Positions 3,744-54,967 are shown, counted from the stretch's first letter. The stretch: 64,000 nt of DNA from an uncultured delta proteobacterium (GCA_963755715.1 CAVWLW010000030.1:32001-96000), one strand, 5' to 3'. Translations and numbers: made by a program. Notes: generated by a model not told the origin, from the sequence alone.

Positions 3744-3845
3744 AGCAACACAACTGTCACAAGAAACCAGTCGCAGCGGCTTGCTAGCGCGCTGTTGCTT
3801 TTGCCTGCATCCTGCTCGCAAACCATCACTCCGGAGGAAGCGATC

Positions 3846-4283
3846 ATGAATGCATTAGAGCTCTTGAAGCGCGACCATGACGCGATCACGGCTTTGCTTG
3901 CCAGCGCAAATGTTTACGTGGATATGAAACGACTTTTCGAAAGAATAAAAAGCGAGCTCGAAATTCACGCCCATATCGAGGAGACGGCTTTCTATCCCAT
4001 ACTGCAAAACCACGAGCTGCTCAAAGATCTCGCGCGCGATGCCAGAGCGCAGCATGCACTGATCAAAGAACTGCTCTCCGACTTGGAAAAACAAGAAGGC
4101 GCGGAATTTGAAAAAAATTTCCAGGCGCTCAAAGCCGAGGTCCAGCTGCACTTCACCGAGGAAGAGAATGAAATATTTCCGCAGGTGACGAGCCTGAAAG
4201 GCGGTCCCGATTTAGGCCGGCTCGCTGAACAATTGGCGACGAACAAGAAAGAATATCAATCGACGCAGGGATCCTTAGCCTAA
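3846..4283 (+). CDS. Hemerythrin HHE cation-binding domain protein (copy 1)
   Basis: MNALELLKRDH, HAHIEETAFYP, QH and HFTEEENEIFP; GGAGG RBS before ATG 3846. Confidence 0.85.
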   Translation: MNALELLKRDHDAITALLASANVYVDMKRLFERIKSELEIHAHIEETAFYPILQNHELLKDLARDARAQHALIKELLSDLEKQEGAEFEKNFQALKAEVQLHFTEEENEIFPQVTSLKGGPDLGRLAEQLATNKKEYQSTQGSLA

Positions 4284-4407
4284 GATTCGCCGCAAACTGT
4301 CGGCATAATGTTACAGCGTCTCGGCTTTTCGTTCGCTTTATCCAACAGAGAACCGATCGATAAAAGATAATCCCGCATAGCCATTGATTTTGTCACGCAA
4401 ACTTTGC

Positions 4408-4422
4408 TGGCACTGGCTTTGC
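4408..4422 (+). promoter_or_regulatory. sigma54 -24/-12 promoter
   Basis: TGGCACTGGCTTTGC, about 40 nt before ATG 4462. Confidence 0.75.
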
Positions 4423-4461
4423 TCGCTTGCGTTGATGCCGACAAATTTAAGGAGGTTGCTC

Positions 4462-4905
4462 ATGAACGCACTCGAACTGCTGAAGCAGGACCATCGGAAG
4501 GTCAAAGAGTTATTTGATCAAGCGAAAGCTGCCGCGGACGACAAACAGCGCAAGCAAATTTTTGATCGGATTGATACCGAACTGACGATTCACGCGCATA
4601 TCGAAGAGACGCTCTTTTACCCTGAGATGCAACAATACGAAGAGCTTAAGGACATGGTTGAAGAAGCTTTGCAGGAGCATCAGGAAGTTACGACCTTGCT
4701 CGACGAAATTGAAACCATGGAGCCGAACGATGATGAGTTTCAATCATCGCTCGAAGAACTTATGGAAACCGTCGAACACCATGTTCAGGAAGAGGAAGAT
4801 GAGATGTTTCCTCAGGTGCATGAGTTGTGCGACGAGGCAACGCTCGAAAAACTTGGCCAGCAGTTGGAGTCCGCCAAAGGAAAACAGCAACGCCAGGCTA
4901 GTTGA
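4462..4905 (+). CDS. Hemerythrin HHE cation-binding domain protein (copy 2)
   Basis: MNALELLKQDH, HAHIEETLFYP, EH and HHVQEEEDEMFP; AAGGAGG RBS. Confidence 0.9.
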   Translation: MNALELLKQDHRKVKELFDQAKAAADDKQRKQIFDRIDTELTIHAHIEETLFYPEMQQYEELKDMVEEALQEHQEVTTLLDEIETMEPNDDEFQSSLEELMETVEHHVQEEEDEMFPQVHELCDEATLEKLGQQLESAKGKQQRQAS

Positions 4906-8233: not shown

Positions 8234-8712
8234 TTAATTTTCGCGCAGTCGCGGCAGCACGTGGCGTCCGTATTGCTCAAGGAAGGCAGACTGATCGGGA
8301 CCGGCGGCATGAAAAATCAAATGATCAAAGCCTAAGTCGACATAGCGCCGAGCGAATTTTACGTGAACGTCGGGATCGGCGGAAATACAGACTGACTGTC
8401 GTATCGTGTCGGCGCCGACTGCCTTGCCGTTTTCTTCGGACATTTTGGGCGTATAAATTTTTTCAGTAAACAAAGCTGGAAGGAAAACCCCCGCCCAGTA
8501 GTTTTTCCGGGTGGCGATGGCTTTGGTCTCATCGTCCGTAAAATCGGCCGCGAGCTCGATCATGCGTGGCATCTTGTCTGGATCTTTGCCCGCTTCTTTC
8601 GCGCCCGCGTCAAAGTTCTCGAGCATTTGTCGATAGGTTTCCGAGGTTTCGCCCCCCACGGTGATCAACCCGTCACCGTATTTGCCGGCAACTCGGGCGC
8701 TGTTCGGGCCGC
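8234..8712 (-). pseudogene. C-terminal fragment of an LLM-class (F420-dependent G6PDH-like) oxidoreductase
   Basis: GPNSARVAGKYGDGLITV...FDAGAKEAGKDP...YVDLGFDHLIFHAAGPDQ...VLPRLR. Confidence 0.75.
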
Positions 8713-10543: not shown

Positions 10544-11260
10544 TTAAAGAAATTTTCGGTCCTTTATCGGGTCCGGCACCGTCAGCCCCATACCTTGGAT
10601 GATCGGGCCGACTTCTTTTATGAATTCCCAGCGCGCTTGACTGTTGCTGCGCCGCTTCAAACCCCAGTGGCAAAATCGATTCGATCGTTCAGAATCGCTC
10701 CGTCCGAACATATCCAACGCTTTGATGTACCAGAAGTCGACACTCCGTTGCGCGCGCTCCCGTTCTTCGTCGCCTTTAGCGGCAAGCTCGGCGGTCTGAT
10801 TGGTGCCGAAACCGATATGACCTATTTCCTCTTTCAGGATCTCCGGTAATATCCGTTGCAGCGGCAAATAACTGCAATCGAGAAATTCCTCCAGTTGATA
10901 GCGACCGACCCGATCGATCAGAAAGCCGAATACGGCAAAATCCTCCCAGGTTTTGATAACGCCGCGAAAGGCTTCTAGAGAGCGCTTCTGATTCGGTATG
11001 CTCAGCAGGAAAGACGTATCTGTACCAATGTCGCCGGCGAGCTTGGCGATTTTTCGGTAGTGGTCCATTTCTTCGGCGGCCGTGCGAGCGACGATCAATT
11101 GATTCACCTGACTGGGCGCCGTTGGCAAAATATCTTTGACGTAGAGATGGGGACCGCCGATTTCGCAGTCCGCTTGTATCGTCAGCACCCGTTCGAGCAA
11201 CTCCTTGTATTCCGCCGGCATTTTTTCCAAGTCTTCGCGCTCGATTTTATCTTCGAACAT
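10544..11260 (-). CDS. Ferritin-like diiron protein of the PaaA/PaaC (ring-1,2-phenylacetyl-CoA epoxidase) family
   Basis: MPAEYKELL..QADCEIGG, AP..EEMDH, SYLPL..ILKEEIGH, ALDMFG and WGLKRRSN. Confidence 0.75.
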   Translation of the reverse strand: MFEDKIEREDLEKMPAEYKELLERVLTIQADCEIGGPHLYVKDILPTAPSQVNQLIVARTAAEEMDHYRKIAKLAGDIGTDTSFLLSIPNQKRSLEAFRGVIKTWEDFAVFGFLIDRVGRYQLEEFLDCSYLPLQRILPEILKEEIGHIGFGTNQTAELAAKGDEERERAQRSVDFWYIKALDMFGRSDSERSNRFCHWGLKRRSNSQARWEFIKEVGPIIQGMGLTVPDPIKDRKFL

Positions 11261-39224: not shown

Positions 39225-40796
39225 ATGGCAAACGCAAAACGAGACGGCGCTGCGCCGGAAGAAGTGAGAGATCTCAGGCGGGCAATCGAGTGGATGAAGA
39301 AAGAAGGTGACATTATTATCACCGACAAAGAAGTCGACCCCAATCTCGAAATCACCGGCATCCAAAAACGGCTGGACGGCGGTTGCCCGATCCTTTTCAA
39401 CAACGTTAAGGGCAAGCCTCAGCATCGTTGCATCACCAACCTCTTCGGCGACATGAACGTCATCAACAAGATGTTCGGCTGGAAGGATCACGCCGATCGG
39501 ACCCGAAAACTTGCCTATGCGATCACTCACCCGATTGCGCCGATTGTGGTCGATCAAAAAGATGCGCCGGTACAGGAAGAAGTTTACGAAAAACCGGCTG
39601 AAGCCAACGACTACGTCGTGCCGATCCGCCACACCAACATCGAGCCGGAGTTGACCGTCGGCTCCGGCAACCGCTTAATCTCGGGCGAATATTTCAACGG
39701 CGGCACGGACCTCGGCTATAACCGCATGAATTTTCGCTGGGGCAACGTGGGGACATTCCAAATTTCTCCCGGCTCGCACATGTGGCAAGTCGTGAGCAAA
39801 TATTACAAAGACAATAAGATGGTCCCGATCACGATGAATTTCGGTTTGCCGCCGGCCGGCTCGCTGCTCGCCGGCGCTGGCTTCGACTATGTTATCCTGC
39901 CGCAAGGTTGCGACGAAGTCGGTATGGCCGGAGCCGTGCAAGGCGCGCCGATGCGCTTGGTGAAAGCCCGCACCATCGATGCTTACGCTTTAGCCGATGC
40001 CGAAGTCATTCTCGAAGGCTATGTAAATCCCCGCGACCGCCGTTTCGAGACCGCGGAGTCGGAAAAGGCCGGAATTCAAGGTCGCTTTCACTTCCATCCC
40101 GAATGGGCCGGCTATATGGGCAAAGCCTACAAAGCACCGACGTTTCATGTCACCGCCGTGACGACCCGTAAACGGGAAGGCAAGCCGATTATCTTTCCAC
40201 TCGGCGTGCACACGCTCGACGATCACAACATCGATACGACGATCCGTGAAGCGGCGATGTTCGAGCTCTGCGAACGCATGCAGCCCGGCATCATCATGGA
40301 CGTCAACATTCCTTACTGCATGACGGATTGGGGCGGAGCGATCATCCAGGTCAAGAAGCGCAATCGCATCGAAGAAGGGTGGCAGCGCAATTTCATGGCC
40401 GCGATCCTCGCGACTTCGCAGGGCTCGCGTTTGGTCATCGCCGTCAGCGAAGATTCCGACCCTTACGACATGGATGACATCATTTGGAATCTCACCACCC
40501 GCGTCAATCCAAAAACCGATATCATCAACCCGCTACCGGGCGGTCGCGGCCAAACTTTTATGCCGGCCGAGCGCATGACTGCCGGCGAAAAAGAGTGGAC
40601 CGCATCGAATACCAGTTTCGAAGGCGGCATGGGCATCGACGCGACCGTGCCTTTCGGTTACGAGAGCGACTTCATGCGCCCGGTTTATCCGGTCGACAGA
40701 GTCGAACTTTCGAAATGGTTCAGTGAGAAAGATATTCAGAACGCCAAGAGTCGCATGCAAGGCTGGGTGCATTCGTTAGCGCGCACCGGCCGTTAA
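39225..40796 (+). CDS. UbiD-family prFMN decarboxylase, phthaloyl-CoA decarboxylase (PhtDa/Pcd)-like
   Basis: 523 aa; YNRMNFRWGNVGTFQISPGSHMW, QGRFHFHPEWAGYMGKAYKAPTFHV, IPYCMTDWGG and terminal SLARTGR match my recollection of characterised Pcd sequences; GGAGG RBS. Confidence 0.8.
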   Translation: MANAKRDGAAPEEVRDLRRAIEWMKKEGDIIITDKEVDPNLEITGIQKRLDGGCPILFNNVKGKPQHRCITNLFGDMNVINKMFGWKDHADRTRKLAYAITHPIAPIVVDQKDAPVQEEVYEKPAEANDYVVPIRHTNIEPELTVGSGNRLISGEYFNGGTDLGYNRMNFRWGNVGTFQISPGSHMWQVVSKYYKDNKMVPITMNFGLPPAGSLLAGAGFDYVILPQGCDEVGMAGAVQGAPMRLVKARTIDAYALADAEVILEGYVNPRDRRFETAESEKAGIQGRFHFHPEWAGYMGKAYKAPTFHVTAVTTRKREGKPIIFPLGVHTLDDHNIDTTIREAAMFELCERMQPGIIMDVNIPYCMTDWGGAIIQVKKRNRIEEGWQRNFMAAILATSQGSRLVIAVSEDSDPYDMDDIIWNLTTRVNPKTDIINPLPGGRGQTFMPAERMTAGEKEWTASNTSFEGGMGIDATVPFGYESDFMRPVYPVDRVELSKWFSEKDIQNAKSRMQGWVHSLARTGR

Positions 40797-43510: not shown

Positions 43511-43966
43511 GTGCGCAAAGGCCATACATCGCGCAAGACCGGCGATCCTCTCGATAAGTCGGCGCGCGATTCGCGAGAAGTAACCGTATCGACGACGCGG
43601 CGAAGGAACCGTCCACGCGCCGAGTCGTCGTCGCCCAATATTGACCTGACCCTGAAACATTTCCACCGTCGCAATGAAGGAGCGCTCACGTCGGGGGACG
43701 GCAAGAGGCTTTACCTACGAGTCGGCGATGAGGTCAATCACCTGCGTTATGAAGAGTGGGGCTTGGGAGTGGTAATGGAAGTGATGACATCGTCGGTTCC
43801 GGGCGGCACCTGTCTCGCCCGCGTGCGCTTTCAAGACGGACAGTTACGCTGCTTTAACAACGATCTTGACAACCAGGCCTGTTGCTACTATTTCGGAGTA
43901 CGGCGCTACTGGAACCCGACCGAAGGCGTCGAAGCCATTCGGACACAATTCTTTTTAAGGAGATAG
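43511..43966 (+). CDS. DUF3553-like protein (start uncertain)
   Basis: LYLRVGDEVNH...EWGLGVV...GG.C..RVRFQDG..R.F.NDLD...CCYY.G. Confidence 0.6.
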   Translation: MRKGHTSRKTGDPLDKSARDSREVTVSTTRRRNRPRAESSSPNIDLTLKHFHRRNEGALTSGDGKRLYLRVGDEVNHLRYEEWGLGVVMEVMTSSVPGGTCLARVRFQDGQLRCFNNDLDNQACCYYFGVRRYWNPTEGVEAIRTQFFLRR

Positions 43967-44367: not shown

Positions 44368-45102
44368 TTAAGCTAAATTTGTTTTGAAGAAGCTAACGGT
44401 TCTTCCCCATGCGTCCTTGGCCGCTTCGGGATTGTAGCGGTCTGCGTTGGTATTGTTGTTAAACGCATGTTTCGCGCCCGGATAAACTTTACAATCAAAC
44501 TTTTTCCCCGCCTTCTGTAGCGCCGCCTTCAAAGGCTCCACGCCCGGCATGATGTTCGCGTCATCTTCGGCATAGTTCCCCATCACCGAACAAGGAATGT
44601 TGGCGACGGAATCAAGTGGATCCGGGTTGCGGCCGTAGTAGACAACCGCAGCGTTCAGATCCTTGCTCTTGGTGGCGAAATTTAGCGACTGACCGCCGCC
44701 CCAGCAGTAGCCGACCACGCCGACTTTGCCGTTGACGTAGTTCTGCTTTTTCATATAAGCCACTGCTGACGCCAAATCCTCGGCCACCATGGTTCCGTTT
44801 ACCTTCTGAATTTCTTTGGTGGCCTCATCACTGCCATTCCATTTGTCACTGCCACCGATCCGGCCCATGCAGTCCACCGCGATCGCCGCGAAGCCGTCTT
44901 TAGCGAAGTGCCGCGCCACGTCTTTGATATGACCCACGAGTCCCCGGTTTTCGTGAATCACGAGCACCGTACCCAGATTCGTCCCGCTCTTCGGCCGTGC
45001 TACATAAGCGTTGACGGTTCCGGCTTGACCGGGGAATGAGACCATTTCCGAGGTCAAACTGGAATCATTCGGATCGACGATATTTTCTATAGTCTGAGCC
45101 AT
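44368..45102 (-). CDS. Dienelactone hydrolase family protein
   Basis: VIHENRGL, VGYCWGG, YYG and HAFNN. Confidence 0.93.
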   Translation of the reverse strand: MAQTIENIVDPNDSSLTSEMVSFPGQAGTVNAYVARPKSGTNLGTVLVIHENRGLVGHIKDVARHFAKDGFAAIAVDCMGRIGGSDKWNGSDEATKEIQKVNGTMVAEDLASAVAYMKKQNYVNGKVGVVGYCWGGGQSLNFATKSKDLNAAVVYYGRNPDPLDSVANIPCSVMGNYAEDDANIMPGVEPLKAALQKAGKKFDCKVYPGAKHAFNNNTNADRYNPEAAKDAWGRTVSFFKTNLA

Positions 45103-45278
45103 TGTAAAACCTCCTTCAGCAAATTTTTAAATCATTCGCCCCAGCTATAGCTAAAAACAAAATTCAAATCCAGACCCATTTGCCGGATTGTAGGCCCTCA
45201 AAACAGCAACGGCGCCTTGACGGCGCCGCTGTTCGTGGAACTCGCGATTTTCTCTGAAACGAAGAAGGAATCAGCGTC

Positions 45279-45626
45279 TCACGCCGAGGTCGAGCTCGCG
45301 GCGGAAGATGACTTTTCACCGCTCGACGGAGTGCTCTCGCTTTTCTTACTCTCTGTCTTAGTTTCCGTCTTGGTTTCTTTGCTTTCTTTATTATTTGAAT
45401 CCGCAGGCGACTTGGCGGTTTTATCGTCCTTGGCATCGCCGTTTTGGCCTTTACGCGCGTAGTCGGTGACGTACCAGCCGGTACCTTTCAGTTGGAACGA
45501 AGTGTTCGAGATAAGCTTTTTGACTTTATTCTTACAAGTGGGACATTTGCTCAGCGACTTCTCGGTGATTCTTTGCGTGACCTCGAAGGTGCCGCATTTT
45601 TGGCATTGATACTCGTAGATAGGCAT
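45279..45626 (-). CDS. FmdB-family zinc ribbon protein
   Basis: [27 protein letters not shown] plus a low-complexity tail. Confidence 0.92.
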
Positions 45627-45708
45627 GAAAAATCCTCAACTTAGCTGTTTGTCGGATAACTTAACCACAGTCTTCGATGATGTCAATTGAAGCTCATGAC
45701 GGCTCCAT

Positions 45709-46065
45709 TCACGCCCGCGCATTGCGGTCCGAGCCGTCTTCTTTGACATGCGGCCCGCCGAATCCTTCCGAGCGGTTGCCGAACAGCACCAGCGGTTCCG
45801 TTCCGTTGTTGGTAATTTGATAATAGTCCTTGGCTTCCAAGAAAAGCACCTCATTTTTACGAATCGGCCGCTCCTCGCCTTTCAAACCTTTGACCACGCC
45901 GCTCCCGGACAAGACCAAAAAAGTTTCCGGATTGGCGTGGTAGTGCATATCCGTGCCGTCACCTGGAACGAAATAAAGCATCCAAGATCGGAAATTACCG
46001 GCACCGAATAAATGGATATTGCGTTTTTTTGTCGAAATCATTTCGTCGAGATTCTTTACGTCCAT
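45709..46065 (-). CDS. Cupin domain protein
   Basis: PGDGTDMHYH..PETFLVLSGSG and YQITNNGTEPL; AAGGAGG RBS; divergent from the 46209 operon. Confidence 0.85.
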   Translation of the reverse strand: MDVKNLDEMISTKKRNIHLFGAGNFRSWMLYFVPGDGTDMHYHANPETFLVLSGSGVVKGLKGEERPIRKNEVLFLEAKDYYQITNNGTEPLVLFGNRSEGFGGPHVKEDGSDRNARA

Positions 46066-46208
46066 TGCGATCCTCCTTAGACTAATTTTTTGATTCTAGC
46101 CTAGCTCTCTTGTTTTGAGCAAGCGTCGCGAATCGAGCTTGACAGCCAAATGGGGCTGCAATATTGGTGCTCGGTAAACCGTTTATCTAAACGATGGAGG
46201 CGTTTCGC

Positions 46209-46952
46209 ATGCTAAAACTCAACGAGTCGCAAGCCGAAGAATTTATCGCCGATCTTGCCGCGAAATGCGACCGCCGCTGGAAGGAAACCGTCGATAAGAC
46301 CCGTTTTATGGACGAGCTGCGCGAAGGCAAGCTAAAAAAAGCAACGCTGCAGCTTTTTTACAAGAACTGGGGCTCCTTTGTGCCGGTGATCAATTCGGTT
46401 TACACCTCGGCCTTTTATAAGCATCTCTGGTTTTTCGTTAAAAACGTCGACTTGATGGAGGTCTACACTCAAAAAGTTCTCGACGAGTTCGGCCATCCTT
46501 GCCCGCCGGGGCATATTCAGATCCTGATGAGCACGGGCAAAGCCCTGGGTCTGAGTAAAGAGGAAGTGCTCCTTTCACCGATGCTGCCGGAGTGCCGGGC
46601 GCTGCCCGACTTTCATCGCACTCTGATCAACGACGGGCAGATTCAGGAGTATTGGTTTTCGGTTCTTTGGGAGCATCCCTTCGGCAATTCTTGTCTGGAT
46701 TTTTTCAAAGCCCTCACCACGCATTACGGTCTCAGCACGGCCGACGCGAGTTATTTTTCCAAACATCACGAAGCCGACACCATGGATCATCTGGATCGAA
46801 AATCACACGGCGCGGTGACGCAGACGGTTTTGGTCCGGCTGCTGCAGGAAGGCATCAGCGAGCGGCCGGGCTATTCGGCGGAATACTGCGCCGTCACGCC
46901 GGCGGATTTGAACAAGATGTTCATGGACGGCTGCTATAAGGCAACGCATTAG
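46209..46952 (+). CDS. Heme-oxygenase-like diiron enzyme (CADD/PqqC/TenA fold), paralog 1
   Basis: FMDELREGKL, DEFGHPCPPGH, ALGL, WE and YFSKHHEAD..H...H give an E/H/E/H/D/H ligand set; GGAGG RBS. Confidence 0.75.
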   Translation: MLKLNESQAEEFIADLAAKCDRRWKETVDKTRFMDELREGKLKKATLQLFYKNWGSFVPVINSVYTSAFYKHLWFFVKNVDLMEVYTQKVLDEFGHPCPPGHIQILMSTGKALGLSKEEVLLSPMLPECRALPDFHRTLINDGQIQEYWFSVLWEHPFGNSCLDFFKALTTHYGLSTADASYFSKHHEADTMDHLDRKSHGAVTQTVLVRLLQEGISERPGYSAEYCAVTPADLNKMFMDGCYKATH

Positions 46953-46957
46953 TCGAA

Positions 46958-48040
46958 ATGCCGCGAAGCGAGAACAAAATGTCGTTGGCAGAGCTCAATC
47001 AGAAACTCAAAGAGCAAAATCTCATCGGCTACTGGACGATTCCCAATACCAGCACCGGCTTTCGCGAGCCGGAGCCGACCTTCCGGCCCTTCCTTTGGAA
47101 ATGGAAGGAGATTCGCGCGGCGCTCGATCAAGCCGCGCAGCTTATCCGTCCCGAAGAAGCGTTCCGCCGATTTATCGGTTACCAGCACCCTGAATTGAAA
47201 TTGGGCACGGCGCACACTCTGCTCATGGGTGCGCAAATGGTCCGGCCCGGCGAGTTTGCGCCGGCGCACCGTCACACCATGGGCGCGATCCGCTTCGTCG
47301 TCGAGGGCCACGGCGCGACAACCATCGTCGAAGGCGAGCCCTTGCCGATGGAGCCGGGCGATTTGATCACGACACCGAGTTGGAATTGGCACGACCACGT
47401 CAATAGCGGCGACACACCGATCATCTGGCTTGACGGCGCCGACGGACCGATGCTGCACTATTATCAAGCCGGTTTTGCCAACCCGTTTCACGAGCGCCAA
47501 CAGACCGTGAGCAAGCCTGAAGATTGGTCAAAAAAAACCTACGGCGCCTTGCGTCCGCAGTCCACGCCGCAACCGACGTCGAGTCTTTACCGCCCGCCCT
47601 ATCGCTACGCCTGGAAAGACACGGAAGAGATTTTTGCAGCGATGGCTGAAGCGCCCGGCGATCCCTACGACGGAGTTTTGCTGCACTATGCGGACCCGCT
47701 CAGCGGCGGGTCGACTTTGCCGACGATGAATTGCCAAGTGCAAATGTTTCGCCCCGGTGAGAAAGGCCGCTCGCATCGTCACACACACTCGGTCGTGTAC
47801 CATGCTTTTCGCGGCTCGGGCACGACTTGGGTCGGCAATGAGAAATTCGACTGGCAGCAAGGCGATTCCTTTGTCGTGCCGCTCTGGAGCTGGCACGCCC
47901 ATGAAAATAATTCGGGTGAGCCGGCGATATTATTTTCCATCAATGACCGGCCGGCGATCGAAGCGTTGGGGTTTTTCAGAGAAGAAACGAGGGAGAAAGT
48001 CTTACGTCAGCATCTCCAGTGTCAAACGGGTGTCACCTGA
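46958..48040 (+). CDS. Gentisate 1,2-dioxygenase-like bicupin
   Basis: LWKW, PGEFAPAHRHT..AIRF, GDLITTPSWNWHDH, WLDG.D.P, TLPTM, HRHT and VVPLWSWHAH. Confidence 0.88.
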   Translation: MPRSENKMSLAELNQKLKEQNLIGYWTIPNTSTGFREPEPTFRPFLWKWKEIRAALDQAAQLIRPEEAFRRFIGYQHPELKLGTAHTLLMGAQMVRPGEFAPAHRHTMGAIRFVVEGHGATTIVEGEPLPMEPGDLITTPSWNWHDHVNSGDTPIIWLDGADGPMLHYYQAGFANPFHERQQTVSKPEDWSKKTYGALRPQSTPQPTSSLYRPPYRYAWKDTEEIFAAMAEAPGDPYDGVLLHYADPLSGGSTLPTMNCQVQMFRPGEKGRSHRHTHSVVYHAFRGSGTTWVGNEKFDWQQGDSFVVPLWSWHAHENNSGEPAILFSINDRPAIEALGFFREETREKVLRQHLQCQTGVT

Positions 48041-48056
48041 GCGAATGCGAAGGGTC
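48031..48056 (+). repeat. Degenerate half-copy of a short palindromic intergenic repeat
   Basis: TGTCACCTGAGCGAATGCGAAGGGTC resembles the TGTCATCCTGAGCGAAGCGAAGG-type repeat. Confidence 0.4.
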
Positions 48057-48128
48057 GCGTTCGTCGAATTCTCCTACCGTCAGACACCAGAACTTTAGAC
48101 TGCGATTCGAGTTTTTAGACAAGTGAAC

Positions 48129-49550
48129 ATGGCCTTCACTGACCTAAGAAACTTCATCGACGGCGCCGCGCGCATCGGCGAGCTGAAAGTCATCGACGGG
48201 GCGCACTGGAACCTCGAAATCGGCTGTCTGACGGAATTGATGGCCGAGCAAGAAGGACCGCTGCTGCTCTTCGACAAGATCGTCGATTATCCCGCGGGTT
48301 TTCGTATCGCGACCAACGCGTTGGCGACACCGCGGCGCTTCGCCCTGGCTCTCGGCCTACCCACCGATGTGCCGAAGCTGGAGATTCTCAAAGCCTGGCG
48401 CAACAAGATTCGCGATCTCAAGCCTTTCGCCCCCGTCGAAGTTTCATCCGGCCCGATAAGCGAGAATGTTCTTGAAGGTGATCGCATCGACTTGGATATT
48501 TTTCCCACGCCCAAATGGCACGAGCACGACGGCGGGCGCTATATCGGCACCGGCGACATGGTGATTATCAAAGATCCGGATAGCGGCTGGATCAACGTCG
48601 GTACCTACCGCTCCTGCGTCGTTGCCAAGGATCGCGTTACGCTCTGGATCATCGAGCACAAGCACGGCAAACAGATCGCGCGCCGATATTGGAACGCGGG
48701 ACGCCCCTGTCCCGTCGCCATCGTGCTCGGTTGCGAGCCCGCTACCTGGCTGGCTGCGCCGTCCGCCGCCAAATCCGGTGTGAGTGAATATGAATATGCC
48801 GGCGCGTTGCGCGGCGCGCCGCTCGAAGTGATCCGAGCGCCATTCACCGGACTGCCGATCCCCGCAACAGCTGAAATTGTCATCGAAGGCGAAATGCCCT
48901 CGCCCGAAGAAGAGTCGCACGCGGAAGGGCCCTTCGGCGAATGGCCGGGATATTACACTCATAGCGGCGATGAATGTGTCGTCCGCGTCAAGCGGATTCT
49001 CTATCGCAATGATCCGATCCTGCTCGGCAATCCGCCGCTTTTGCCGATCACCGAGCGCTATGGCATTCCGCTCTACGCCGCGCGCATCTGGGACCACTTG
49101 GAGCAATCCGGCATCTCGGACGTCCAAGGCGTTTGGTGCCATTGCCATACTTTGATGGTGGTCGTCTCTCTGAAGCAACGGCACGCCGGGCAGGCATTGC
49201 AAGCGCTCACTGCGATCGCCGGCATGCAAACCGGCGCGAGCATGTATCGCTACTATATCGCCGTCGACGACGACATCGATCCGGTGGACCTGAAACAAGT
49301 CATCTGGGCCATGTGCACGCGCGTCGATCCGGCGGAGTCGGTGCAGATTCTTAAATCCTGGACCACCGATCTCGACCCGCGCTTGCCGCCGGACAAGCGC
49401 GACAAGGGCGATTTTACTATGAGCCGCATGTTGATCGACGCCTGCAAACCGTTTCATTGGCGCGAGCATTTCGCCGTCGCCAATAAGTTCAGCGCCGAGA
49501 AGCGCGAGGAGATCTGGGAAAAGTGGGCGCCGAAACTTTTACTCAAATGA
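48129..49550 (+). CDS. UbiD-family (de)carboxylase (second, different clade)
   Basis: DLRNFI, PLLLFDKI, NVGTYR, AEIVIEG, EGPFGEWPGYY, VDDDID..V.WA..TR.DP and IDACKP. Confidence 0.92.
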   Translation: MAFTDLRNFIDGAARIGELKVIDGAHWNLEIGCLTELMAEQEGPLLLFDKIVDYPAGFRIATNALATPRRFALALGLPTDVPKLEILKAWRNKIRDLKPFAPVEVSSGPISENVLEGDRIDLDIFPTPKWHEHDGGRYIGTGDMVIIKDPDSGWINVGTYRSCVVAKDRVTLWIIEHKHGKQIARRYWNAGRPCPVAIVLGCEPATWLAAPSAAKSGVSEYEYAGALRGAPLEVIRAPFTGLPIPATAEIVIEGEMPSPEEESHAEGPFGEWPGYYTHSGDECVVRVKRILYRNDPILLGNPPLLPITERYGIPLYAARIWDHLEQSGISDVQGVWCHCHTLMVVVSLKQRHAGQALQALTAIAGMQTGASMYRYYIAVDDDIDPVDLKQVIWAMCTRVDPAESVQILKSWTTDLDPRLPPDKRDKGDFTMSRMLIDACKPFHWREHFAVANKFSAEKREEIWEKWAPKLLLK

Positions 49551-49610
49551 AGTTGTCGGGTTGACGTTTCAGCGCACATAAACTAAGGACTGAAACAAGG
49601 AGGACACATC

Positions 49611-50522
49611 ATGGACAAAGTAAACTTTCCCTATCGTTCGGACAGCCATCTGCCGTTTCTTCACGTCGTTCACGACTCGGGTTCCTGGGCGAAGCACGGC
49701 CTTGACGTGAATTACGACTACGAGATTACTTCGGAGGATTCGCACAAGAACGTCGCCAACGGCACGGTCGAATTCGTCGGCGGCAATCATCTTTCGCCTT
49801 ACATTCGCCGTTCGATGGGCGACAAATGGGTTTACCTCGGCCAATCCGTGAGTTTGTTGAATCATCGGCTGGTCGTGCGCGCCGACTCGGGCATCAACAA
49901 AGTTTCCGATCTCAAAGGCAAAAAAGTTGCGACCAAGGGCAAGCACCCCGGTTTGAATACTTGGCTCTTCATCAAGCAGGCCGGGTTGATCCACGAGTGC
50001 GAGGTGGAGAAAGCCAAGGGCAGTAAGTTTCACTGGGAAGCGGTGCGCGACGGCGAAGCTGATGCGGCGTTCGTCACGCCGCCGGCGGATATTCTGTCGA
50101 AACGCGCCGGCTTGAAAGTCATCGAGGTGCCGTTCTTGCCGATGGTGTGGTTCACCACGGTTTCGAGCGGGTTGCCCTTCGTCGAGAAACACCCGGATAT
50201 AATCGACAAGATGCTCCGCGGCATTTGCGAGGGCATCGCCTATTTCAAAACGCACCGCGCCGAGTCGATCAAAATCATCAAAGAAAAATACAAGGCCGAA
50301 GGCGATCTCGACGACGAGACGGCGAGCCATCTGTACGACGACCTAAAGAAAGTCCTGCAGGCGAAGCCGTACGCGACGATTCCGGCGATCAGCAATGTCT
50401 ACGAGATTTCAATCGTGCAGGACAAGGCCGCCGAAAAGACCGATCCGATGGCGCTGTGGGATTTTCACTATCTCAGACGCATCGACGACAGCGGCTTTAT
50501 CGATAATCTATATCGGACTTAA
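49611..50522 (+). CDS. NMT1/THI5/SsuA-type binding-protein fold without signal peptide
   Basis: HGLDV, DLKGKKVA, GEADAAFVTPP and IDDSGFIDNLY. AAGGAGG lies 7 nt before the ATG and the N-terminus is polar (MDKVNFPYRSDSH). Confidence 0.8.
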   Translation: MDKVNFPYRSDSHLPFLHVVHDSGSWAKHGLDVNYDYEITSEDSHKNVANGTVEFVGGNHLSPYIRRSMGDKWVYLGQSVSLLNHRLVVRADSGINKVSDLKGKKVATKGKHPGLNTWLFIKQAGLIHECEVEKAKGSKFHWEAVRDGEADAAFVTPPADILSKRAGLKVIEVPFLPMVWFTTVSSGLPFVEKHPDIIDKMLRGICEGIAYFKTHRAESIKIIKEKYKAEGDLDDETASHLYDDLKKVLQAKPYATIPAISNVYEISIVQDKAAEKTDPMALWDFHYLRRIDDSGFIDNLYRT

Positions 50523-50530
50523 GACCTTCA

Positions 50531-50603
50531 TGCTTCGACAAGGCTCAGCACGAACGGAGGATTCGGGTTCTTTTTTTCCGTTCGCCCTGAGCTTGTCGAA
50601 GGG
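50531..50603. repeat. REP-like inverted repeat pair (CTTCGACAAGCTCAG family)
   Basis: CTTCGACAAGGCTCAGCACGAACGGA ... TCCGTTCGCCCTGAGCTTGTCGAAG. Confidence 0.8.
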
Positions 50604-50642
50604 CTCCGCTTTTCTTGTACTCAATCAACGGAGCAACAGCCG

Positions 50643-51416
50643 ATGACTGGCGTTACTCCTCAGCTCGGCGTCAAGATGAGCTCCAATGACGCCAGAGCGT
50701 ACATCGACGAAGTCAACAAGAAAGTCATTCAGCGCTGGAACGAGCGAGTGACGCAAGGTCCCTTCATGAGGAAATTACTAGAAGGCACCTTGCCGATGTC
50801 GGCGATTAAGCTGTTCTTCAAAAATTGGGGCAACTTCACCGTCGAGATCAATACTCTGATATCCGTCTCGTATCATAAACATATCGGCTTTTTTAAACGT
50901 CATCCCGACCTCATGGCACCGCTCGGCGTCAAGATTGCCGACGAGTTCATTCATCCCAAGCCGCCCGGTCATGTGCTCGTGATGCTTCAGACCGCCGAAG
51001 CGCTGGGGCTCACGAAAGATCAGGTGCTGCGCGAACCGATGCTGCCGGAGTGCCGCGCCATACTCGATTTCAAACGGCAGCTCATGTGGGAAGGAACCGT
51101 CGCCGAATGGTGGTTTTCCATGCTGACGGAAGAGCCCATCGGTCACTGGTCGGCCATGTGGTTCAAAACCTTGACGCAGAAATACGGTTTCAGTAAGGAG
51201 CAGGCCGTTTACTTCTCCACCCACGAGGAAGCCGACCTGAAAGAACACGAAGACGGCGTCATGGGTCATGGTAGTTTCAACAAACTAGTCATGCAGCGCA
51301 TCCTCGAAGACGGTTACGCCGATACGCGCGAAGGTTACAATCTCGAATACTGCGCCACTGCCGCCGTCGATCTCTACGGCGTCATGCACCGCGCGGCGGC
51401 GGAGCTGGCGGAATGA
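50643..51416 (+). CDS. Heme-oxygenase-like diiron enzyme, paralog 2
   Basis: KNWGNF, DEFIHPKPPGH, PMLPECRA, TEE and YFSTHEEAD...H...H; clearly homologous to 46209..46952. Confidence 0.75.
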   Translation: MTGVTPQLGVKMSSNDARAYIDEVNKKVIQRWNERVTQGPFMRKLLEGTLPMSAIKLFFKNWGNFTVEINTLISVSYHKHIGFFKRHPDLMAPLGVKIADEFIHPKPPGHVLVMLQTAEALGLTKDQVLREPMLPECRAILDFKRQLMWEGTVAEWWFSMLTEEPIGHWSAMWFKTLTQKYGFSKEQAVYFSTHEEADLKEHEDGVMGHGSFNKLVMQRILEDGYADTREGYNLEYCATAAVDLYGVMHRAAAELAE

Positions 51417-51437
51417 TCAACCCAAGAGAAATTTTCC

Positions 51438-52441
51438 ATGACAGCTTTGAGAATTTTCATTATCCGCCGTGTTCTTGCTTTTTCTCATCGGCGACTGCCC
51501 AGGCGCAAACGACCTCACTCGTCCTCGGCTACAGCGGCTCGGGCATCAGCACGGATCTGCGCCGCGTCATGGATCTGGAAAAAATCTGGGAGAAGCACGG
51601 CCTCATCATCAAATCGGTCTACTTCAATAGCGGCAGCGTTCTCACCCAAGCGATGATCGGCGGGAACATAGCGCTGTCGGATTCCGGCGTGCCTGAAATG
51701 CTTGTCCTGCCGGTCTCCGGCGCATTCGAGACCAAAGTCATTACTGTCAATATCAATCGTCTCGAACATATTTTCGTCACGCGCAAAAACGTCGCAAAGC
51801 CCGAAGACCTGAAGGGCAAGCGCATCGCCGTGAGCCGTTTCGGCTCGGCGTCGGATCTCACGACGCGAATGGTGCTACGATCATGGAAGCTCGACCCGGA
51901 AAAAGACGTTGCCTTGTTGCAATCCGGCAACACGCCGACCCGCATGACCGCGCTGATCGCCGGCCACGTCGACGGCGCGCTGGTGAGTCCCGAGAGTCTG
52001 CACAAGGTTTTGGCCAGCGGCTGCTGCCGATCTTTGGCCGATCTCTCCGAGCTGCCCCTCGACTTTGCCCGTTTCGGCGTGACCGTGCCGGCTTCGTTGA
52101 TTCGCAACCAGCGCGACGTCGCGCGCCGCATCGTCATGGCCTACGTCGAAGGAATTCATGCATTTAAAACAAAACCCAAACTCGTTTACTCCGTGCTCGA
52201 AGAAGAAGGCATCAAGGATCCAGCCGTCGCTAAAGAAATTTATGCTCGGTTGAGTTTCAGCATGCGCGAATATCCGATTCCCGAAGCGAGCGGAATACAA
52301 AATGCCCTCGATTCGCTCGGTCACCCGAACGCGCGCAACGTGAAACCGGCCGGTGTGATCGACACGAGCCTGATCGAGGAAGTGCGGAAATCCGGCTTTA
52401 TCGACAAACTCTACGGGCGAGCGCCGATGAATCAAAAATAA
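51438..52441 (+). CDS. NMT1/THI5-type ABC substrate-binding protein; signal peptide region frameshifted
   Basis: MTALRIFII.. then AQA-QT in another frame; EDLKGKRIAVSRFGS, RMTALIAGHVDG and SGFIDKLY. Confidence 0.8.
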
Positions 52442-52893
52442 AACTCAGTGTTTGAAACCTGCCACGGTCGCGCGCCATCCCGCTTCGTTTTCATCGGCAC
52501 ACGGAAAGACACAACCCGTCGTATTTTTTCAAGACTTGTGATTAGAATTGAGAGCACGAAAGAGATTGTGGAAGTGATCACAAAGACGCCGAGCAGGCCT
52601 AGACCAGTTTCGAAGATTTGTTTGGAATCGGAGAGTTCGTCGCTGCCGTCGCGAAAAGCAAAATTCTTAACGAGCACGCCATCCTTTCTGAGATACAGTC
52701 CGAAGAGAATAAGAACAATTGGACTGAATAACGAAAACCACCGACCTAGTCTTAGACTTGACTCCCACGCTACCCCAGAATCCGAATTGTTGAGCACTCT
52801 CGCCAGCGAATCAAGCTATTCGCTGAGCCCGGAAGCCGGACAGTAGAGTCCAATGAATTTGATTCTTAAATTTTGTAGCGTCGTAGTTTTCAT
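52432..52893 (-). pseudogene. Hypothetical membrane protein, possibly degenerate
   Basis: ATG 52893 is in frame with ORF 52432..52797 but interrupted by TAG at 52816-52818; hydrophobic segments; more AT-rich than its neighbours. Confidence 0.35.
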
Positions 52894-52925
52894 TTTAGGA
52901 TGACTGTCGGTTTAAGATCGATTTT

Positions 52926-53267
52926 TTAGACCTTCTCGTCTTCCGCCAAAATGTCCGTTATCAGATCCCGAATCAGCTGCCGCTTCGGCAGCGGTTCGAC
53001 AGTGATCAATTCCGGCGTTACCTTGGCGATGCAGGTATATTCCACCGCGCCGTTCACCAGCGCCATGCAGGTTTTGCAGGCGTTAGCGTTGATGCAGCTG
53101 TAGCGAATCCCCAGCGTGCTATCGAGATGAATGCGAATCCAGCGCAGCGCGTCGAGCACCGACATGCCTTCTTCGTAGGGAACGTCGAAGACATCGTAAC
53201 GGCCCGCTTCGCCGACCGACCCGCGCCGGACGCGAAGACGGGTGGTTTTGCCGATTGGATCAGCCAT
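52926..53267 (-). CDS. [2Fe-2S] protein resembling only the N-terminal domain of SdhB/FrdB
   Basis: SVLDAL..I....D..L..RYSCINANACKTC..VNG....TC and VEPL......IRDL. Confidence 0.85.
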   Translation of the reverse strand: MADPIGKTTRLRVRRGSVGEAGRYDVFDVPYEEGMSVLDALRWIRIHLDSTLGIRYSCINANACKTCMALVNGAVEYTCIAKVTPELITVEPLPKRQLIRDLITDILAEDEKV

Positions 53268-54967
53268 GACTCGATTCGCTGCGATTGAGTCGGACGAGAG
53301 CGGCCCAGCGCGTCGACAGGTTGCCGTCTTTCAGCTCCAGCACCTGATTCTTGAGCAATCGCGCATCCGCGATCGGAAAATCTTCGCGCTGATGTGCGCC
53401 GCGGCTCTCGGTTCGCGCCAAGGCGGAACGGACGACCGCTTCCGCCGTCGTCAGCATCGCGCGTAATTCGAACCAATCTTGCAGATCGAGATTGAAGTCA
53501 CGTTCTCGGTTAATGCGCAGACGAAGCAGGTCCGTCTTGCTCATCTCTTCGATGCGCGCGAGCGCCTCCGTCAGCTTCTCGCCGGTGCGAAACGGCCCGG
53601 CTTGCTCCCACATCAGCTTCTGCAGCTCAATTTGCAGCGTGATCGGAGCGGCGCCGTCCGAGCGGGAATTTTCGTAGACAAATCCTAAGCGCTCGATTGT
53701 TTTCTGAGCGAGTTTCTCGTCCCAAGCAGCTGGCGCGCGCTGCGCCGCTTCAGCGGCGCTGGAGCCGGCGCGCGCGCCGAATACGAACGCTTCAGTGATC
53801 GCGTTGCCGGACAGTCGATTGGCCCCGTTAGAGCCGCCGACCGCTTCGCCGGCGGCATAAAGCCCTTCGATTCGCGTCCGCATGTTCGTGTCGACGCGAA
53901 TCCCGCCCATGTGATAGTGCGCCATCGGGCCGACTTCCACGGGCATTTGCGTGAGATCGATGCCGTTGACGAGCAGGCGATCGATCACCGGACCGAAAGC
54001 GGCGCGCAGTTGCGTTTCAGGAATGTGGCGGAAGTCGAGATAAGCGCCGCCGTGCGGCGTGCCGCGCCCGGCTTCGACTTCTTTTAAGATCGCGTAGGCC
54101 GCGATGTCGCGGGTGGCGTTGTAATGGCCGAAATCCGTGCTGCCGTAGCGGTCGATGAATTCTTCGAATTGTCCGTTGAGCAGTTTACCGCCGAGCTTGT
54201 AGCGAAACGGATCCCATAGGATCGGATCCATGCCGACCAGGCGCGGCGCAAGATGGCCGATCGGAAAAAATTGCACGAACTCCATATCGATCAGCTCCGC
54301 GCCGGCCGACAATGCCAACGCGTACGCTTCGCCGCCCATGTTGGCCGACGCGCTGTTGCGCTCGTAGAGTTTCGTGAGACCGCCGGCGGCGAGAATCACC
54401 GCTCGTGCTTGAATCGTGACCCATTCGCCGCCGGCGAGACTGAGAGCGACGGCGCCGATCGCCCGCCCGTCGCGCGCCAATATTTCGAGCCCGGCGAGAT
54501 TGCTGATGCGCCGAATGTTTGTCGACTCGCTCACTTTGCGCCTGAGCGTCGCTGCCACGGCTGGACCGGTGTTGAGAAAGTCGACGTAGCAACAGCGTTT
54601 GACGCTGTGCCCGGGCGCCATTTCTTGCTTGATGCGGCCGTCTTCCCGCGCCCAGCGCGTGCCCCACTGCTCCATCTCGACGATGCGCTTCGGCCCGTCG
54701 CTGCAAACCAACCGCGGCAAGCTCTTCGTTGCACAGGCCGCGGCCTGCCCTCAAGGTATCTTCCAGATGCAGCTCGACCGAGTCCGGTTCCGCCGCGCCG
54801 AGCGCTACGGCGACGGTCATCTGCGCCATGATCGTCGCGCCGCCGCGGCCAACTTGGCCTTTGTCGACGAGAAGCACCGAGGCGCCATCGCGTGCCGCGG
54901 CGATCGCCGCGTACATACCGGCGCCACCAGCACCGACTATCAGTACATCTGTCGAGAGTTGGGGCAT
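53260..54967 (-). CDS. SdhA/FrdA/NadB-superfamily flavoprotein; frameshift near 54710
   Basis: VGAGGAG, LAAGG, DMEFVQF, ATRD, AHYHMGG, LYAAGE, GANRL.GN and RTESRGAH.REDFP; two overlapping ORFs join at EELAA/VCSDGP. Confidence 0.88.

Follow-up and report, generated by a model that had tools for sequence, protein, structure and literature searches.

The stretch of DNA analysed here is a window of 64,000 nt (CAVWLW010000030.1:32001-96000) from an uncultured soil bacterium of the Binatia group. Within it lies a compact gene cluster that encodes two paralogous heme-oxygenase-like, predicted dimetal proteins (HDO1 and HDO2), together with a UbiD-family (de)carboxylase that depends on prenylated flavin mononucleotide (prFMN), a bicupin of the ring-cleaving type and two proteins of the NMT1/THI5 fold (NMTa and NMTb). 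The UbiD resembles the phenazine-1-carboxylate decarboxylase PhdA, the HDO proteins and their relatives share an invariant set of candidate metal ligands, and several of the gene pairings recur in related genomes. On these grounds we tentatively read the locus as one for the breakdown of an aromatic or N-heteroaromatic carboxylic acid. The genes of the locus, with a further UbiD gene on its left flank, are as follows (profile scores in bits):

44368..45102, minus strand, dienelactone-hydrolase (DLH)-family protein (YghX-like); Pfam DLH 162.8, NCBIfam YghX 187, below the cut-off of 460
45279..45626, minus strand, FmdB-family zinc-ribbon protein; Zn_ribbon_8 57.4, TIGR02605 70.5 against a cut-off of 31.3
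45709..46065, minus strand, small single-domain cupin, divergent from HDO1; Cupin_2 42.1
46194..46952, plus strand, HDO1, predicted heme-oxygenase-like dimetal protein; PF14518 27.1
46958..48040, plus strand, bicupin of the gentisate/salicylate-type ring-cleavage dioxygenase family; two Cupin_2 domains
48123..49550, plus strand, UbiD-family prFMN-dependent (de)carboxylase; PF20695, PF01977, PF20696 and TIGR00148
49611..50522, plus strand, NMTa, signal-less NMT1/THI5-fold protein; Pfam NMT1 44.1
50643..51416, plus strand, HDO2, the second HDO paralog; PF14518 32.7
51413..52441, plus strand, NMTb, solute-binding protein of the NMT1/SsuA/TauA type; NMT1_2 35.2, NMT1 35, TIGR01728 52.9
39225..40796, plus strand, second, divergent UbiD paralog of 523 aa on the left flank; three UbiD Pfam domains, VdcC model 159, below the cut-off

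The plus-strand genes from HDO1 to HDO2 are separated by gaps of 5, 82, 60 and 120 bp, and the HDO2 and NMTb genes overlap by 4 bp. On the minus strand the small cupin gene is followed by the FmdB gene and then by the DLH gene, the last of its unit, and thus the system is better drawn as two divergent units that span 44368-52441. Open reading frame (ORF) calls and the Pfam and NCBIfam profiles recovered the seven genes from the small cupin to NMTb with the coordinates, strands and families that had been given in an initial annotation made from the sequence alone, and a Pfam scan agreed with it that no Rieske or flavin monooxygenase is encoded in the 45.7-52.4 kb region. The cluster genes are real, since homologs with 78-93% identity occur in many records. 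Promoter and terminator scans of 45000-53400 did not rise above shuffled sequences (3 sites against a mean of 4.0, and 10 against 11.0, respectively).

To place the cluster among its relatives, we called ORFs in 79 genome loci from related metagenome-assembled genomes (MAGs) and compared them with the window proteins. By label, 33 of these loci are Candidatus Binatia, 28 delta-proteobacteria, 10 Syntrophobacter(aceae)/Thermodesulfobacteriota, 5 Verrucomicrobiia/Udaeobacter, 2 Proteobacteria and 1 Chloroflexota. The loci contain 104 HDO genes, several MAGs contributing two to four copies, and the proteins fall into three clades of 20 (HDO1 type, support 1.0), 48 (HDO2 type) and 38 members, window proteins included.

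HDO1 and HDO2 are true paralogs (43% identity over 235 residues, E = 1e-72), and all four motifs by which they had initially been linked occur in both. Matches to general family models are weak: for Haem_oxygenas_2 (PF14518) HDO1 falls just below and HDO2 just above the cut-off of 28.9 bits, and for TENA_THI-4 the scores are 19.1 and 24.1 bits against a cut-off of 22. In the PDB no sequence was matched better than E = 0.01, the top match being CADD. The NCBIfam model for CADD (TIGR04305) gave 22.2 bits with HDO2, against a cut-off of 200, and no match with HDO1; the NCBIfam models for PqqC and TenA gave no match to either protein at E ≤ 0.01. These results bear out the proposal that the pair stands outside the PqqC, TenA and CADD families. 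Three assignments were tried and rejected in particular. An assignment to PqqC finds neither a model match nor a pqq gene among the 62 window ORFs scanned. TenA thiaminase II has a conserved catalytic Cys; the sole candidate in the HDO proteins is C137, in the motif PMLPECRA that the initial annotation had singled out as shared, and this position is not conserved: 38 of the 101 full-length relatives have C there, 37 have F and 25 have A. Lastly, a p-aminobenzoate synthase of the CADD type is contradicted by the score far below the TIGR04305 cut-off and by the alignment of CADD Lys152 with W173 of HDO2.

A word-based search with HDO2 returned 844 proteins. The best 120 of these are 78-89% identical to it and 245-362 aa long, most of them 255-260 aa, and they are named 'PqqC', 'thiaminase', 'iron-containing redox enzyme' or hypothetical in their source records. 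When an HDO profile was run exhaustively against 1.84 billion proteins, taken as representatives of clusters at 50% identity, 268 clusters were found at E ≤ 1e-3, 165 at 1e-10 and 54 at 1e-30; the commonest phylum for the relatives in the protein Atlas was Candidatus Binatota. Judged from these searches, the HDO clade is small and self-contained. Another Haem_oxygenas_2 family, unrelated to this one (235 aa; 34.6 bits with PF14518 and no match in NCBIfam), was seen in seven of the loci, L001, L010, L016, L025, L048, L051 and L054 (e.g. L010:19019-19726, minus strand).

The AlphaFold (AF2) model of HDO2, built on a 32-sequence alignment, had a predicted local distance difference test score (pLDDT) of 94.5 and a predicted template modelling score (pTM) of 0.90. 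Foldseek placed it nearest to CADD (1rcw/8vag), with template modelling (TM) scores of 0.71-0.73 by query and 0.84-0.88 by target at 15-16% identity, followed by FlcD, PqqC, TenA homologs, UndA and BesC, with 49 matches at E ≤ 1e-3. As modelled, HDO2 has the seven-helix heme-oxygenase-like fold. A HMMER alignment of HDO2 and CADD pairs H110 with H88, E163 with E142, H194 with H174 and D198 with D178, and sets CADD H181 against E201, beside H202; CADD Tyr27 lies outside the aligned region. Ligand conservation was assessed in 101 full-length proteins, namely 99 from the 79 loci plus HDO1 and HDO2. Ten Glu, Asp and His positions, E101, H104, H110, E155, E163, H194, E196, D198, H202 and H209 (HDO2 numbering), are invariant in all 101, as are W62, K97, R138, Y181, Y190, R229, Y236 and C237, and E101, E163 and D198 are kept in at least 90% of 32 more distant representatives. 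The predicted ligands are thus E101, H110, E163, H194, D198 and H209/H202 in HDO2, and E98, H107, E160, H191, D195 and H199/H205 in HDO1. The CADD-like E/H/E/H/D/H set originally suggested for both paralogs therefore stands as an invariant set, but its sixth member would be H209 and/or H202 and not the i+7 His of CADD. A motif of three His and three carboxylates is what defines HDOs (PMC13108848), and the HDO1/HDO2 clade carries it, which predicts a dimetal site.

Five distant relatives (P0129, P0134, P0137, P0157 and P0210; 483-519 aa) are double-HDO proteins. Their N-terminal halves keep E101/H110/E163/H194/D198/H209 in 5/5 cases, and H209 is favoured as the sixth ligand for this reason; the C-terminal halves have lost most ligands in 4/5, P0157 retaining three. 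Proteins of this architecture indicate that two HDO domains can function as a pair. No fused long form of HDO2 (451-2000 aa) was found at E ≤ 0.001 among 1070 candidates, which is weak evidence; the profile search did find the five double-HDO proteins.

CADD (CT610) is thus the best structural match of HDO2, with a shared seven-helix fold and four aligned ligands. It is a self-sacrificing p-aminobenzoate synthase, and the role of its Lys152 is taken here from 10.1101/2022.08.01.502304. It differs from HDO2 in the low identity, in the displaced sixth His and in having Lys152 where HDO2 has W173, and also in its genomic context, folate genes in the case of CADD and UbiD, cupin and NMT1 genes in the case of the HDOs.

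The window UbiD has all three UbiD domains and a TIGR00148 score of 283.3 against a cut-off of 244.85. Its match to PDB entry 7PDA reached 598 bits (E = 1.3e-178, residues 4-472), the next solved UbiD being HudA/PA0254 at 189 bits. The 7PDA entry is PhdA, the phenazine-1-carboxylate decarboxylase of Mycolicibacterium fortuitum (PMC10850782). By sequence comparison, PhdA is the closest characterised relative of the window UbiD, a relationship that the initial annotation had missed. UbiD2, a second UbiD that follows HDO2 in related loci and shares 40% identity with the window UbiD, likewise has PhdA as its nearest match (346 bits). The two settings are alike in that the likeness of the UbiD proteins extends over their full length and in that both lie beside oxygenase genes in soil bacteria. 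They differ in their partners. In M. fortuitum phdA belongs to a three-gene operon with a UbiX gene (phdB) and a prFMN maturase gene (phdC) (PMC13040415), whereas no phdB or phdC homolog lies near the window UbiD; and the phenazine-induced region of M. fortuitum holds Rieske-type and extradiol dioxygenase genes (PMC4626857), where the window has HDOs and a gentisate-type bicupin. UbiX-type and Rieske families were absent from the 62 window ORFs scanned, and orf151 (43511-43966), considered as a PhdC-like maturase, was rejected with a best PDB match of only E = 0.3. The left-flank UbiD, 5 kb upstream of the cluster, is found on the same side in L001, L005, L006, L011 and L018 with 90-96% identity; its membership in the system is uncertain.

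NMTa and NMTb are 24% identical to each other and both exceed the Pfam NMT1 cut-off of 20.5 bits. NMTa lacks a signal peptide, as the initial annotation had it, and among the 120 homologs listed nearly all are 303 aa long with the same N-terminus. Its sequence matched nothing in the PDB at E ≤ 0.01, but its AF2 model (pLDDT 92.7) was matched by Foldseek to 3qsl, ThiY, Thi5, SsuA, PqqT and DszB with TM scores of 0.66-0.74 (14-16% identity to Thi5). Judged from the model, the fold class of NMTa holds both binders and cytoplasmic enzymes, and NMTa would resemble the enzymes DszB and Thi5 in being cytoplasmic. The ThiY-TenA and PqqT-PqqC pairs each act on one heteroaromatic ligand. NMTa and HDO2 form pairs of the same two folds, with the difference that HDO2 keeps the dimetal ligand set, which TenA and PqqC do not. 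NMTb, by contrast with NMTa, had been read as a binding protein. Its family supports this (TauA 6ssy, E = 8e-8), and so do its relatives: in a sample of 21 of 82 related NMT1 proteins most begin with a clear signal peptide, including the L018 protein, to which NMTb is 89% identical. The N-terminus of the window copy itself is aberrant, with no hydrophobic core; a hydrophobic stretch lies just upstream in a neighbouring frame (51380-51520), which suggests a frameshift, or else a deletion connected with UbiD2 loss.

The bicupin matched the PDB gentisate 1,2-dioxygenases 3bu7 (247 bits) and 2d40 (241 bits), and HRH...H motifs are readable in both of its halves. Its NCBIfam scores, 311 for 5-aminosalicylate dioxygenase (NF049978; cut-off 650) and 277 for gentisate 1,2-dioxygenase (TIGR02272; cut-off 442), place it by sequence in the gentisate 1,2-dioxygenase family and, being below the equivalog cut-offs, leave its specificity unassigned. 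The gentisate pathway thus offers a dioxygenase of the same family, and paralogous loci show the order bicupin, HDO, FAH-family hydrolase; it differs in that its usual flavin or Rieske hydroxylase and its maleylpyruvate isomerase are not seen, an HDO standing in their place. In the N-nitrosourea biosynthesis enzyme SznF an HDO domain is coupled to a cupin (PMC7848743); here the two are separate proteins, the bicupin is of a ring-cleaving type and the context looks catabolic. No conserved extra Glu that might correspond to the seventh ligand of SznF was seen in the corresponding region of the HDO sequences.

The initial annotation had presented six co-oriented genes as one layout. Comparison of the loci does not support a fixed six-gene unit. 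Around HDO1-type genes a UbiD lies within 2.5 kb in 18/19 loci, a small cupin in 15/19 (directly upstream of HDO1 in 12/19 contexts) and a DLH gene in 15/19, and the FmdB gene is syntenic in close loci; the bicupin is present in only 8/19 and is an optional member of the cluster. Neighbourhoods of HDO2 were counted in 32 loci whose HDO2 is at least 77% identical. The genes most tightly linked are NMTa and HDO2: wherever upstream sequence is available (30 loci), NMTa precedes HDO2, directly in 25 cases and across an insert of ~3 kb in the other 5 (L003, L014, L016, L024 and L033). The insert encodes a 354-aa protein without Pfam match and TctA, with TctB where the contig reaches it; the two are components of a tripartite tricarboxylate transporter (TTT), which hints at a carboxylate substrate. 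UbiD2 follows HDO2 in 15/28 loci with enough downstream sequence (16 with L022, where the ORFs overlap) and is lacking in the window. In L009, L010 and L020, NMTa-HDO2 occurs with 10 kb of upstream sequence and yet with neither HDO1 nor the first UbiD, so that an obligate HDO1:HDO2 heterodimer is not indicated. The best description of the layout is a pair of related modules, HDO1-(bicupin)-UbiD-NMTa and HDO2-(UbiD2)-NMTb, and the parallel divergence of HDO1/HDO2 (43%), UbiD/UbiD2 (40%) and NMTa/NMTb (24%) fits a duplicated three-gene module.

Recurrent linkage of HDO genes to UbiD and cupin genes was seen in the relatives, but for UbiD only in the two window-type subgroups, where 45/66 HDO genes have a UbiD within 2.5 kb, against 0/38 in the other two. 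Gene densities per 10 kb, within 2.5 kb of an HDO gene and farther away, were 0.78 and 0.16 for cupins, 1.64 and 0.70 for NMT1 and 0.85 and 0.47 for UbiD; this is a trend, the loci being related and not independent events. Cupin-HDO adjacency is found in all four HDO subgroups, in differing contexts. Elsewhere, HDO paralogs adjoin cupin dioxygenases, FAH-type hydrolases, aldolases, molybdenum hydroxylases and exported NMT1 binding proteins. The order DapA/HpaI-type aldolase, gentisate-type bicupin, HDO, FAH-family hydrolase occurs in L048, L054, L057 and others; a different cupin of 351 aa followed by an HDO, sometimes twice in a row, in L055, L063 and L066; and a split thiamine pyrophosphate (TPP) enzyme followed by an HDO and a molybdenum hydroxylase in L059, L073, L075 and L076. 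In the group with 72-76% identity an HDO gene is followed by genes for a DLH, an Amdase-family protein and an NMT1 protein; a deazaflavin-dependent reductase is encoded divergently from this run, and genes for molybdenum hydroxylases lie close by. Transporters of the ABC and TTT types occur in the paralogous loci. By family scans of the locus genes, the wider neighbourhoods look catabolic and not biosynthetic, which supports the initial reading.

F420-linked enzymes also recur beside HDO genes, downstream of HDO2 in L002, L010 and others and upstream of the 72-76% group in L028-L042; they comprise a TIGR03617 LLM-class oxidoreductase (433.6 bits against 278) and members of the deazaflavin-dependent nitroreductase family. 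These enzymes may supply reducing power, or their substrates may be the same heteroaromatic compounds. A sulfonate theme, considered because of the SsuA-like binders, was set aside: the luciferase-like LLM oxidoreductase belongs to the F420-dependent TIGR03617 and not to the SsuD type, and none of the split TPP enzymes reaches a sulfopyruvate decarboxylase cut-off.

The explanation that we favour, with somewhat less than even confidence, is that the locus serves to degrade an aromatic or N-heteroaromatic carboxylic acid in a Binatia lineage, with the HDOs as the O2-activating enzymes, the PhdA-like UbiD acting on the carboxyl group and the bicupin, where present, opening the ring. The protein families, the folds, the PhdA likeness of the UbiD, the invariant ligand set and the gene pairings are established by the comparisons above. 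In the scheme that we infer for its reaction, substrate, electron donor, order of steps and protein-protein contacts, an exported NMT1-type binding protein would feed uptake of the acid, and the PhdA-like prFMN enzyme would remove (or add) a carboxyl group, with UbiX encoded elsewhere. Ring oxidation, by hydroxylation or otherwise, would fall to HDO1 and HDO2, putative O2-dependent oxygenases with two metal ions apiece (Fe2 or Mn/Fe), which would stand in for the Rieske or flavin monooxygenases of known pathways. The bicupin, where present, would then open the ring of an o-hydroxy acid, and DLH and alpha/beta hydrolases would process the ring-opened product. The cytoplasmic NMTa is predicted to bind the same ligand as HDO2 and would either hand it over or act as an enzyme like DszB or Thi5. 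It is more likely that the two HDOs work in parallel or successive HDO-UbiD-NMT modules than that they form an obligate heterodimer.

Several observations weigh against this scheme. The likeness to PhdA does not fix the substrate of the UbiD; PhdA itself takes a wide range of aromatic acids (PMC10850782). About a dozen HDOs have been validated, mainly with fatty-acid or amino-acid substrates and largely in natural-product biosynthesis, and section 4 of the 2026 mini-review that reports them (PMC13108848) describes none that is catabolic or hydroxylates arenes. In 11/19 HDO1 loci the bicupin is missing. The order of steps is also awkward, for gentisate-family dioxygenases need a ring carboxylate and UbiD removes one. 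In family scans of the window ORFs the cluster had no reductase or ferredoxin partner, UbiX, PhdC-like maturase or classical catabolic regulator. NMT1 genes are frequent throughout the regions, even away from HDO genes, and much of the synteny among the 79 loci may reflect descent, so that the counts are not independent.

A biosynthetic locus, in which the HDOs would make a small metabolite or cofactor such as a modified aromatic acid or a quinone and the UbiD and cupin would tailor it, is an improbable alternative. It draws on the natural-product and cofactor roles of most validated HDOs (PMC13108848), on the coupling of HDO and cupin domains in SznF (PMC7848743) and on the fact that CADD, the structurally closest protein, makes a cofactor precursor (10.1101/2022.08.01.502304). 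The neighbourhoods, however, hold FAH-family hydrolases, HpaI/DapA-type aldolases, DLH proteins, molybdenum hydroxylases and many uptake components, and no nonribosomal peptide synthetase or polyketide synthase (NRPS/PKS), methyltransferase or aminotransferase; a scan for NRPS/PKS families found none among the 62 window ORFs or the 65 representatives of locus gene clusters. In addition, the bicupin is of the ring-cleaving gentisate type and not SznF-like, the presence of several HDO copies per MAG suits substrate diversification, and the residue aligned with CADD Lys152 is a Trp.

That the HDO, UbiD, bicupin and NMT1 genes are functionally unrelated and have stayed together in a gene-dense Binatia island by descent only is likewise improbable. 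Close loci do share at least 10 kb of synteny, including clearly unrelated genes for an SLT transglycosylase and a JAB protein, the bicupin and UbiD2 are present in some loci and absent from others, and the promoter and terminator scans gave no operon signal. Against this, the NMTa-HDO2 pairing persists in L009, L010 and L020 where the other synteny is gone, the adjacency of cupin and HDO spans all four subgroups in different contexts, and the genes of the window are packed with short gaps and one 4-bp overlap.

We consider it distinctly improbable that the HDO-fold proteins are metal-independent, like TenA and PqqC, and together with the NMT1-fold proteins salvage or convert a heteroaromatic compound in the manner of ThiY-TenA and PqqT-PqqC. 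HDO2 lies marginally above the TENA_THI-4 cut-off, relatives carry the names PqqC or thiaminase in source annotations, and the Foldseek matches include ThiY, Thi5 and PqqT for NMTa and PqqC and TenA for HDO2; but the residues aligned to the CADD metal ligands are invariant, the sole candidate Cys is variable, the NCBIfam PqqC and TenA models give no match at E ≤ 0.01, and CADD is the top fold match of HDO2. Finally, a role of the HDO in O2-dependent prFMN maturation with NMTa as a cofactor chaperone, together replacing PhdB and PhdC, is very improbable: neither of these partners, the prenyltransferase and the maturase co-expressed with phdA in M. fortuitum (PMC13040415), is encoded nearby and the HDO-UbiD-NMT trio occurs twice in related loci, but HDO genes of the other two subgroups have no UbiD within 2.5 kb, the L010 NMTa-HDO2 pair has no adjacent UbiD in the same orientation, and NMTb-type proteins are exported. 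A diiron site, moreover, is not known to be needed for prFMN oxidation.

Elsewhere in the window, an FrdA/SdhA-like flavoprotein gene on the minus strand (53260-54967) is split by a frameshift, ORF 54185-54967 covering positions 1-97 of FAD_binding_2 and ORF 53260-54720 positions 82-413 plus the C-terminal domain; a gene for a 2Fe-2S subunit follows at 52926-53267. The split reflects either an assembly indel or a pseudogene. Genes at 162-1842, 2095-2589 and 8234-8668 also look fragmentary: the ligase and primase-polymerase parts of LigD are in separate ORFs, one ORF holds an ADH_N domain only, and one is just the C-terminal part of a luciferase-like monooxygenase. These fragments are compatible with assembly indels. 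Two neighbouring hemerythrin-domain genes and a gene for a PaaA/PaaC-like (ferritin-like) protein also lie in the window (3795-4905 and 10544-11260), together with genes for a peroxiredoxin and a superoxide-dismutase-domain protein, a set that agrees with an aerobic lifestyle.

Literature searches returned no paper joining heme-oxygenase-like diiron enzymes with UbiD, or Binatia with UbiD, and a search on Binatota, aromatic and gentisate gave, at the level of its listing, nothing on this cluster. We appear to be dealing with an HDO clade that is new and whose genomic, and probably also functional, setting is new as well. A bolder form of our proposal, which we regard as somewhat unlikely, is that the clade is a new class of dimetal O2-dependent (hetero)arene oxygenases in catabolism, each with a cytoplasmic or an exported NMT1-fold ligand binder, and that the window type, with its PhdA-like prFMN decarboxylase, forms a Rieske- and flavin-free route for the degradation of acids like phenazine-1-carboxylate or hydroxybenzoate in soil. 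If true, an aromatic-acid-degrading clade would extend both the chemistry and the biology of the HDO superfamily and would place a third kind of ring-activating oxygenase beside those of the Rieske and flavin classes. The constant pairing of an NMT1-fold protein with an HDO provides a testable idea, that of a ligand-binding partner for a diiron enzyme, and the cluster proteins, being small, soluble and highly conserved, are concrete targets for expression. The close relationship to PhdA suggests that uncultured Binatia, which are common in soil, may consume phenazine-type antibiotics or related heteroaromatic acids, a possibility that bears on the ecology of the rhizosphere.

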